Below, in pieces: positions 13,219-13,596 of a DNA stretch of 64,000 bases (position 1 is the first letter of the stretch; each line of letters opens with the position of its first letter). This DNA is from Rickettsiales bacterium (GTDB taxonomy: Bacteria > Pseudomonadota > Alphaproteobacteria > Rs-D84): positions 23,763-87,762 of the forward strand of contig JAITJD010000009.1 of NCBI GenBank assembly GCA_031279085.1. Reading direction: 5' to 3'. Both the position numbers and the translations under genes were made by a program. The notes below the pieces were generated by a model, which searched no databases, had not been told where the DNA came from, and worked only from the letters and a program-made list of their open reading frames with translations.

Positions 13219-13596
13219 ATGAAAAGAAAAAGACTGGCGGGCGCCGCCGCATTCACAATAGTTGCTTTGTTTGCAATTTCATCATTTGCTGCTGCTGCTG
13301 CTGCTACTGATGATACCACCGGCGTATGCAAATTGATAATGGAAATGCAGGGGGTATTCAAAACTTTGCGCACGTTGGCTTTTCTGGGCGCCGGATTCGT
13401 CTTGGCTAAAACGGCATGGGATTTTATTTCCACTGGCAAGGTTGGCGACAAAACGGGCCTTGAAGGATTGAAAACGGTAGGCGTCCCGATGCTTATCGGA
13501 TTCGCCCTATTGTTTGCCATCGGTGTTGGAATAAGCTTTTTGATAGGCAGCAATACAATAGGATGCGCCGGCCAATTGGTAGAAGGTTGGAAATAA
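13219..13596 (+). CDS. Small secreted membrane protein with VirB2/TrbC-type (type IV secretion pilin) architecture; candidate only.
   Basis: Good SD aaggag 8 nt upstream. A 29-aa signal peptide ends in an Ala run (AAAAAA-TDD). The mature 96-aa part has a hydrophilic head, a hydrophobic segment, a short polar loop (STGKVGDKTGLEGLKT) and a second Gly/Ala-rich hydrophobic segment. This matches VirB2/TrbC length and topology. Confidence 0.4.
   Translation: MKRKRLAGAAAFTIVALFAISSFAAAAAATDDTTGVCKLIMEMQGVFKTLRTLAFLGAGFVLAKTAWDFISTGKVGDKTGLEGLKTVGVPMLIGFALLFAIGVGISFLIGSNTIGCAGQLVEGWK

Follow-up and report, generated by a model that had tools for sequence, protein, structure and literature searches.

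The subject of this analysis is a gene coding for a 125-amino-acid (aa) pre-protein, located between pheT and nth in a 64,000-nucleotide stretch of DNA (the window) from the metagenome-assembled genome (MAG) of a 'Rickettsiales bacterium' (GenBank assembly GCA_031279085.1, contig JAITJD010000009.1, positions 23,763 to 87,762 of the forward strand). The favoured reading, to which about an even chance is given, is that this is a divergent VirB2-type pilin gene, accompanied by a micro-protein of its own and belonging to a dispersed type IV secretion system (T4SS) of the order Rs-D84. The pilin call rests on the genomic context and a borderline profile match, with the genomic evidence being more telling than the sequence statistics.

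Anatomy and conservation of the pilin-like protein

The product of the open reading frame (ORF) is identical to the NCBI entry 'MAG: hypothetical protein LBD50_01255 [Rickettsiales bacterium]', which is encoded on a contig of 161,658 bp. A first-pass annotation of the window had placed the ORF between pheT and nth and ascribed to it the anatomy of a pilin; pheT (10607-13045) and nth (13724-14389, minus strand) do flank the gene on its left and right, respectively, and the leader with its Ala run, the two helices, the 16-aa loop and the tail can all be read from the sequence. The signal peptide proceeds from a basic n-region (MKRKR) through a hydrophobic h-region to the Ala run, and A-x-A motifs suited to cleavage are kept across the alignments of the family. 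The mature N-terminus is short and polar (TDDTTGVC), while the C-terminal tail comprises 15 aa. The Lys-rich loop between the helices would, by the positive-inside rule, face the cytoplasm. AlphaFold2, run with the family alignment, models a helical hairpin (helix 33-72, loop, helix 81-112) with a mean pLDDT of 71.6 for the full-length protein and 74.9 for the mature-only model. Sequence, alignments and models agree on a leader, two hydrophobic helices and a short basic loop, which together constitute the pilin layout.

HMMER, run over all 1.84 billion cluster representatives, recovered 67 family clusters at 50% identity, and a profile search yielded 127 clusters at 90% identity, all of which are unnamed or annotated as "hypothetical". 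Relatives are encoded in at least 193 GTDB species-level genomes, which are titled Candidatus Enterousia, uncultured Alphaproteobacteria or "Rickettsiales bacterium" and come from the guts of humans, mice, ruminants, horses, chickens and termites. The orthologue in a sister termite MAG shares 57% identity with the protein of the window and has preserved the pheT/nth/ileS synteny. Comparison of the two genes (pN 0.245, pS 0.663) shows that the 125-aa gene is a real gene under purifying selection. Near-invariant positions across the family include C37, the helix 1 signature LRTLAF-GA-F...W, G94, L98 and G102 in helix 2, C116 and a C-terminal Trp.

The first-pass annotation had framed the gene in terms of the Rickettsiales, the name under which NCBI lists the MAG of the window. 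The family-bearing relatives are instead Candidatus Enterousia or uncultured Alphaproteobacteria of the GTDB order Rs-D84, and not classical Rickettsiales, as judged from the genome titles and the literature (PMC12306168). Enterousia belongs to the order Rs-D84, the genomes of which mostly fall short of 1 Mb; respiration and many transporters are missing from them, hypothetical membrane proteins are numerous, pseudogenes have not accumulated, and the gene content hints at reliance on partner cells (PMC12306168). Secretion systems go unmentioned in the same paper. Three sequences of this alphaproteobacterial lineage were deposited under other names, L023 and L060 as 'uncultured Muribaculaceae bacterium' and L080 as Bacteroides fragilis, which is probably the result of mis-binning or mislabelling.

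The virB3-virB4 islet of the lineage

The first-pass annotation had reported no other T4SS genes nearby, and this holds for the entire 64-kb window, in which none were detected by Pfam searches of 20 large ORFs, by tblastn and phmmer searches with the pTiC58 VirB and Trb proteins or among the Pfam matches of the flanking genes. Relatives, by comparison, carry VirB4 (PF03135, PF27097) and VirB3 (PF05101), encoded as an islet amid housekeeping genes. The best PDB match of the lineage VirB4 is the R388 TrwK/VirB4 protein (E 1e-39), and its best 120 clusters are all at least 81% identical, which marks virB4 as a core gene passed on vertically. Three genes make up the islet, namely virB3, virB4 and p206, the last of these coding for a secreted protein of 206 aa that bears an HExxH motif. 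In the relatives L023, L098, L099, L115 and L193 the islet lies between the ychF/SufBD-like and the ABC-F/lpxK genes, and the succession of ychF, a SufBD-like gene and virB3-virB4-p206 is observed in all four relatives with a readable ychF neighbourhood (L023, L098/L099, L115 and L193). The p206 gene stands directly after virB4 (12413-13033 in L098, 12848-13477 in L023 and 12416-13033 in L193), and occupies the position that virB5 has in canonical operons. Its products (205-209 aa) carry SHEDEH, THENKH and AHENMH as variants of the H-E-x-x-H motif and have no match in Pfam, NCBIfam or PDB. No pilin gene precedes virB3 in the islets of the lineage, whereas trbC or virB2 is located directly before trbD or virB3 in 14 of 14 reference systems.

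The family gene is found close to this islet in two relatives. When the family loci were searched with the pTiC58 VirB and Trb proteins, VirB4 and VirB3 were located 3.1 kb from the family gene in L023, and a metagenome scan added L115 as the second such relative, the distances in the two being 2.4-3.1 kb. In both, dnaG is followed by the family gene and a micro-ORF, then by ychF and the SufBD-like gene, with ychF converging on the family gene, and finally by virB3-virB4-p206. One NCBI contig also holds both the islet (~250 kb) and a family member (~48 kb). The window opens in ychF beside dnaG, the block that borders the islet in the relatives, and on this basis the virB3-virB4 islet of its own genome is predicted a few kb beyond the left edge of the window.

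Two further features were observed in the surroundings of the islet. A cluster resembling type IVb pilus genes (PAP_PilO followed by a T2SSE-family ATPase) is located 6-9 kb from it in L098 (18977-22409) and L193 (21094-22415), and an AT-rich stretch 5' of virB3 in L023 (16190-16462) contains repeated TTTTCAACAG / CTGTTGAAAA motifs, which may be operator sites.

Similarity to the TrbC/VirB2 pilins

The TrbC/VirB2 family PF04956 (gathering cut-off 27.9 bits) is the top Pfam family for the 125-aa protein (E 5.6e-5, residues 3-67 aligned). It is matched by 12 of the 57 family members at E<=0.01 (best 1.4e-5), and no rival Pfam family recurs. The consensus of the 57-member alignment exceeds the cut-off, with 31.7 bits (E 1.8e-7) over profile positions 11-90 of 98 and in the right register over both helices, while three reversed control sequences gave no TrbC/VirB2 match. 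Alignment of the family with TrbC-type pilins by hhalign spans 77 columns, likewise in the correct register. The first-pass annotation had reckoned with a better match to a holin or another small family with two transmembrane (TM) segments, and none was found in PHROGs or NCBIfam. The similarity to TrbC/VirB2, though specific in its direction, is thus no more than suggestive of homology.

Paralogue types and genomic contexts

A census of 176 family loci distinguishes two types of paralogue. Type A, the clade of the gene in the window, is followed by the micro-ORF and occurs in four contexts (Table 1). In type B, which accounts for ~110 of the 176 loci, a gene for a Cys-rich lipoprotein precedes the family gene, while downstream of it come a copG-like gene, encoded on the other strand, and tolB. 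The type B lipoprotein (108-135 aa) is highly conserved, with the sequence YDYYKGGVRYTQDGEDCIYY...KIVYRNTRC... (e.g. L001 9576-9902, L010 9471-9878 and ~108 other loci); it fits no known family, and no copy was seen in the window. The scattered paralogues to which the first-pass annotation referred are borne out by two MAGs, BRZ_KT__bin2 (L024 and L076) and BRZ_LB__bin18 (L044 and L092), each of which encodes types A and B together on different contigs. In addition, adjacent divergent copies of the family gene are present on two termite-gut metagenome contigs, L154 (150-1053) and L192 (582-1581).

The bicistron and its micro-protein

The 125-aa gene and the micro-ORF form a self-contained two-gene operon extending from promoter to terminator. 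The conserved micro-ORF and the terminator behind it, both of which were overlooked in the first-pass annotation, show that the unit is a bicistron which continues beyond position 13596. The candidate -10 box, a perfect TATAAT, escaped the consensus promoter scan because its -35 element is weak. In every readable type A locus the stop codon of the family gene is followed, at a distance of 2-28 nt, by a micro-ORF of 23-34 codons. The 17 distinct micro-protein sequences, derived from 22 loci, share a basic N-terminus, ~13 hydrophobic residues and the C-terminal pattern C-G-Y-M-[IVL]-[GAS]-x, and the CGYMVG codons of the window and the sister genome differ by synonymous changes only. No known family was matched by the micro-protein in Pfam and NCBIfam searches. 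Its identification as a VirB7-like lipoprotein was rejected, as the residue before the Cys may be A, L, I, V, M or T and the mature peptide would comprise only 6-7 residues; this poor lipobox points to a micro-protein with a single helix rather than to a lipoprotein.

Alternative explanations

A number of observations weigh against the identification of the gene as a VirB2-type pilin gene. The PF04956 search proposed in the first-pass annotation was only partly borne out, for although PF04956 is the top family and the consensus surpasses its cut-off, the 125-aa protein itself scores 23.7 bits and remains below it, where genuine VirB2 and TrbC reach 65 and 71 bits. About half of this score comes from the generic signal peptide: the mature part alone obtains 13.0 bits (E 0.12), a fusion of the signal peptide with the reversed mature part still obtains 12.8 bits and the mature-only family consensus gives no PF04956 match, whereas Agrobacterium VirB2 stripped of its leader retains 55.9 of 64.9 bits. 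The reference alignment for hhalign consisted of 14 annotated TrbC/VirB2 pilins, each encoded directly before trbD/virB3, a small set that was compared without secondary-structure scoring. Against all 14 the 57-sequence family returned P 0.12, against the VirB2-type pilins P 0.062 and against those of the TrbC type P 0.035. This is no improvement on the reversed control (P 0.091), while the positive control, the VirB2 type against the TrbC type, gave E 9.4e-6. The comparison with a single VirB2 was likewise not significant, NNICTFIL and TGVCKLIM being the sole segment aligned. NCBIfam contained no match for the protein or the family consensus, a PDB search with the sequence was empty and one with the family profile retrieved nothing beyond a designed helical protein (E 2.9), and Foldseek comparison of the full-length and mature-only models with the PDB returned zero matches. 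Caution applies here, as Agrobacterium VirB2 used as a PDB query retrieves itself alone, indicating that the pilin family is very divergent.

The genomic evidence is also incomplete. Only two of the 176 family loci are near virB3-virB4, and even there the family gene is not directly upstream of them, with ychF and the SufBD-like gene in between. VirB3 and VirB4 are shown in relatives, and for the genome of the window their presence is a synteny prediction only. Of the search for virB3-virB11 and virD4 suggested in the first-pass annotation, the VirB3/VirB4 part succeeded through the islets of the relatives, but VirB6, VirB8, VirB9, VirB10, VirB11 and VirD4 were not seen in 2.35 Mb of sequence, which represents the neighbourhoods of the family gene and of virB4 only. 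A weak VirB9-like match in L068 (E 0.005-0.04) overlaps housekeeping ORFs on the minus strand and was dismissed. An origin from a plasmid or conjugative element was similarly rejected, given the housekeeping context and the lack of relevant tblastn matches of the protein among 72,556 plasmids; the empty plasmid search also counts against a T4SS pilin.

The most serious alternative, rated at rather less than an even chance, is that of a lineage-specific small envelope protein with no tie to a T4SS. Such a protein would be Sec-exported, consist of two helices stabilised by a disulfide, act with the micro-protein (type A) or the lipoprotein (type B) and possibly have a role in envelope maintenance beside Tol-Pal genes, and its Pfam match would reflect the shared signal peptide and two-helix layout. 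The signal peptide's half share of the PF04956 score, the unmatched mature-only consensus and the hhalign result are all in line with this explanation, as are the missing outer-membrane and channel components of a T4SS in the 2.35 Mb surveyed, the commonest context of the family (type B), in which no T4SS gene lies within 10 kb, and the hypothetical membrane proteins in which Rs-D84 genomes are reportedly rich (PMC12306168). Weighing against it are the status of PF04956 as the sole recurring family, with a consensus score above the cut-off, both helices in register and unmatched reversed sequences, and the absence of any alternative family in Pfam, NCBIfam, PHROGs and PDB. Two features of the genomes argue for the VirB2-type pilin instead: the VirB3-VirB4 pair of the lineage is conserved in islets that have no adjoining pilin gene, and the family gene stands beside the islet in two relatives.

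That the gene is a relic is improbable. On this view the T4SS of the lineage would have decayed until VirB3/VirB4 remained, and the gene, once that of a VirB2, would have survived with another role or with none in particular. The islet does comprise VirB3, VirB4 and one 206-aa protein only. Useless genes are, however, normally lost from genomes this small, VirB4 is at least 81% identical across >120 clusters and the family gene shows both purifying selection and near-invariant residues. The literature offers one point on either side, the heavily reduced genomes (<1 Mb) being compatible with decay and the lack of pseudogene accumulation arguing against it (PMC12306168).

A holin, membrane toxin or secreted bacteriocin-like peptide of a prophage, toxin-antitoxin pair or other mobile element is highly improbable: the protein is small and has two TM segments, type B loci have a CopG-like neighbour and the consensus shows a very weak match to the NCBIfam family 'JUQZ_fam_ocin' (E 0.019, 15 bits against a cut-off of 40), but no holin or other functional match was obtained in PHROGs, the cleavable signal peptide is not normally a feature of holins, the surrounding genes are housekeeping genes with no phage, integrase or relaxase gene, prophage or lysis cassette among them, the GC content falls inside the local range, synteny is kept across species under purifying selection, and the CopG-like gene lies on the other strand and is missing from the context in the window. 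A holin or phage origin is largely refuted.

Comparison with known systems and proposed mechanism

In several respects the protein resembles the TrbC/VirB2 pilins (PF04956; Agrobacterium VirB2, PDB 8CUE and 8EXH; Ti and RP4 TrbC). Both are ~120 aa in length, have a leader ending in A-x-A and consist of two hydrophobic helices with a basic loop and a short tail. A Cys is situated in the short polar mature N-terminus, in the same place as Cys64 of Agrobacterium VirB2, PF04956 is the best Pfam family and VirB3 and VirB4 coexist in the lineage. It differs from these pilins in its score below the Pfam cut-off, in going unrecognised by profile-profile comparison, in the location of its gene away from virB3/virB4 and in its longer loop (16 aa). 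The family further has a conserved pair of Cys residues at its two ends, where T-pilin and TrbC are cyclised, and its genes are followed by that of the 24-aa micro-protein or, in the other paralogue, preceded by that of a lipoprotein. Pilin accessory proteins are known in other systems, with TraQ of the F plasmid being a pilin chaperone and the VirB7 lipoprotein being associated with the T-pilus. The partners of the present family are similar in that a small membrane protein or lipoprotein is encoded beside the pilin-like gene, but they share no sequence similarity with TraQ or VirB7, and the micro-protein (24 aa) is far smaller and without a proper lipobox.

A second point of comparison is the rvh T4SS of the Rickettsiales, which is encoded in scattered islets with multiple virB2 copies (PMC4676284; bioRxiv 10.1101/2025.08.29.673095). 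The hosts in both cases are alphaproteobacteria with reduced genomes, T4SS islets lie amid housekeeping genes (as shown in the relatives) and more than one pilin-like paralogue is encoded per genome at separate loci. The scattered pilin-like paralogues and the detached VirB3/VirB4 islet may accordingly be said to resemble the rvh arrangement by analogy. The present hosts are, however, Rs-D84/Candidatus Enterousia from animal and termite guts, and of the duplicated virB4, virB6, virB8 and virB9 genes that are hallmarks of rvh, VirB6, VirB8 and VirB9 were not seen in the 2.35 Mb of lineage sequence around the family gene and virB4.

Under the favoured reading of a VirB2-type pilin, the pre-protein would be exported via Sec and cleaved by signal peptidase I within or after the Ala run. 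The mature protein of ~95 residues would then form a helical hairpin within the inner membrane, its two termini being periplasmic and its Lys-rich loop cytoplasmic. Since C37 and C116 are each ~35 residues from the loop, they would end up next to each other where the hairpin is open, and there would probably form a disulfide clamp, a topological stand-in for the head-to-tail cyclisation of T-pilin and RP4 TrbC. Extraction of VirB2 from the membrane by VirB4 has been proposed for Agrobacterium, and the VirB3-VirB4 module seen in relatives might similarly pull the protein from the membrane, after which it would build the pilus or a periplasmic conduit of a T4SS with chromosomally dispersed genes. 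The 24-aa transmembrane micro-protein, which is specific to type A, would most likely assist the pilin in the membrane, as its partner or chaperone.

A broader proposal, put forward tentatively and considered unlikely as it stands, is that Rs-D84/Enterousia bacteria run an undescribed, vertically inherited, dispersed and pared-down T4SS or pilus. This would employ at least two pilin paralogues with small partners of their own (the micro-protein in type A and the lipoprotein in type B), would have an N-to-C disulfide in place of cyclisation and might function as a contact device for obtaining metabolites from other cells.

The GCT tract and other features of the window

The first-pass annotation had described a (GCT)5 tract at 13291-13305 as a potential site of slipped-strand length variation. 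The tract is in fact (GCT)6 and starts three nucleotides earlier (Table 1). An independent Logan assembly (L007, run SRR14710901), identical over 11 kb, has the same (GCT)6, and the tract is absent from the orthologues, including L013. As it is in frame and made up of 3-nt units, slippage would merely add or remove Ala residues, and phase or antigenic variation at this site is unsupported. Only one other trinucleotide tract of at least five units occurs in the window, (CGC)6 at 19776-19793, close to the mnmG/fabG junction.

The remainder of the window is occupied by housekeeping genes, among them ychF, dnaG, topA, rodA, PBP2, mreC, rpmI, rplT, pheS, pheT, nth, ileS and mnmG, as well as fabG, fabD, queH, metG, a MacB-HlyD-TolC efflux operon, recF, accC, mutS, pnp, thyX and lptD. 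The tripartite efflux operon (34633-39164, minus strand) codes for a MacB/FtsX-type permease, an ABC ATPase, a HlyD-family adaptor and a TolC-like outer-membrane factor. An ORF of 1188 aa (39413-42979, plus strand) has no Pfam family, and an ORF of 1223 aa without a Pfam match is found in L001.

Table 1. Features of the window around the 125-aa gene, and the genomic contexts of the type A paralogues
Feature	Position or loci	Strand	Basis or details
3' part of ychF (C-terminal 160 aa), converging on dnaG; synteny anchor	1..483	+	77% identical to L098 Enterousia YchF
Terminator-like hairpin 3' of pheT	13154..13175	+	8-pair stem, then T-rich tail; -14.7 kcal/mol, z -2.5
Candidate -10 box TATAAT of the bicistron, just past the pheT hairpin	13183..13188	+	Sequence; inferred
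Shine-Dalgarno AAGGAG	13207..13212	+	6 nt 5' of the ATG of the 125-aa gene; sequence
ORF of the 125-aa pre-protein (type A paralogue, VirB2/TrbC-like)	13219..13596	+	ATG start; sequence and family searches
Predicted Sec signal peptide, residues 1 to ~29, Ala run at end	13219..13305	+	Sequence and alignments
(GCT)6 tract, codons 24-29, six Ala, in frame, in or beside the cleavage region	13288..13305	+	Sequence
Cys37 codon, near-invariant, close to the mature N-terminus	13327..13329	+	Family alignments
Hydrophobic helix 1, residues ~50-70, with the family signature	13366..13428	+	Alignments, AlphaFold2
Polar Lys-rich loop, 16 aa (STGKVGDKTGLEGLKT), predicted cytoplasmic	13429..13476	+	Sequence, AlphaFold2 loop
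Hydrophobic helix 2, residues ~87-110	13477..13548	+	Alignments, AlphaFold2
Cys116 codon, near-invariant, in the C-terminal tail	13564..13566	+	Family alignments
Second Shine-Dalgarno AAGGAG, for the micro-ORF	13613..13618	+	Sequence
24-aa single-helix micro-protein MRKKLVIFIIAAVMIFACGYMVGL, C-terminal motif C-G-Y-M-[IVL]-[GAS]	13625..13699	+	Orthologous loci
Bidirectional intrinsic terminator, common to convergent nth	13700..13725	.	11-bp stem and T-run; -16.4 kcal/mol, z -5.2, 0/200 shuffles as stable
Type A context 1: pheT, gene, then nth and ileS in the opposite orientation	window, L013, L022, L024, L025, L027, L028, L044		
Type A context 2: dnaG, gene, then nth in the opposite orientation	L021		
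Type A context 3: dnaG, gene, then ychF in the opposite orientation ... virB3-virB4	L023, L115		
Type A context 4: downstream of the LppC gene	L015		

Implications

A conserved T4SS module in a gut lineage with reduced genomes, the pairs of paralogues and the micro-ORF appear to be undescribed. Should the gene code for an envelope protein with no tie to a T4SS, the result would merely be a conserved small envelope protein with no role assigned. If the identification as a VirB2-type pilin gene is correct, it would supply a testable role and a name for a family that, in the 193 or more species-level genomes encoding it, all from an uncultured and widespread gut lineage, bears no annotation other than "hypothetical". 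The analysis also shows that a core VirB3/VirB4 module, at least 81% identical between species, has been kept in this lineage through extreme genome reduction. A partner-dependent lifestyle mediated by unknown membrane proteins has been proposed for these bacteria (PMC12306168). A dispersed T4SS outside the Rickettsiales would further inform how and why such systems scatter, while a pilin with a Cys pair and a micro-protein partner would represent new variations on pilin maturation.

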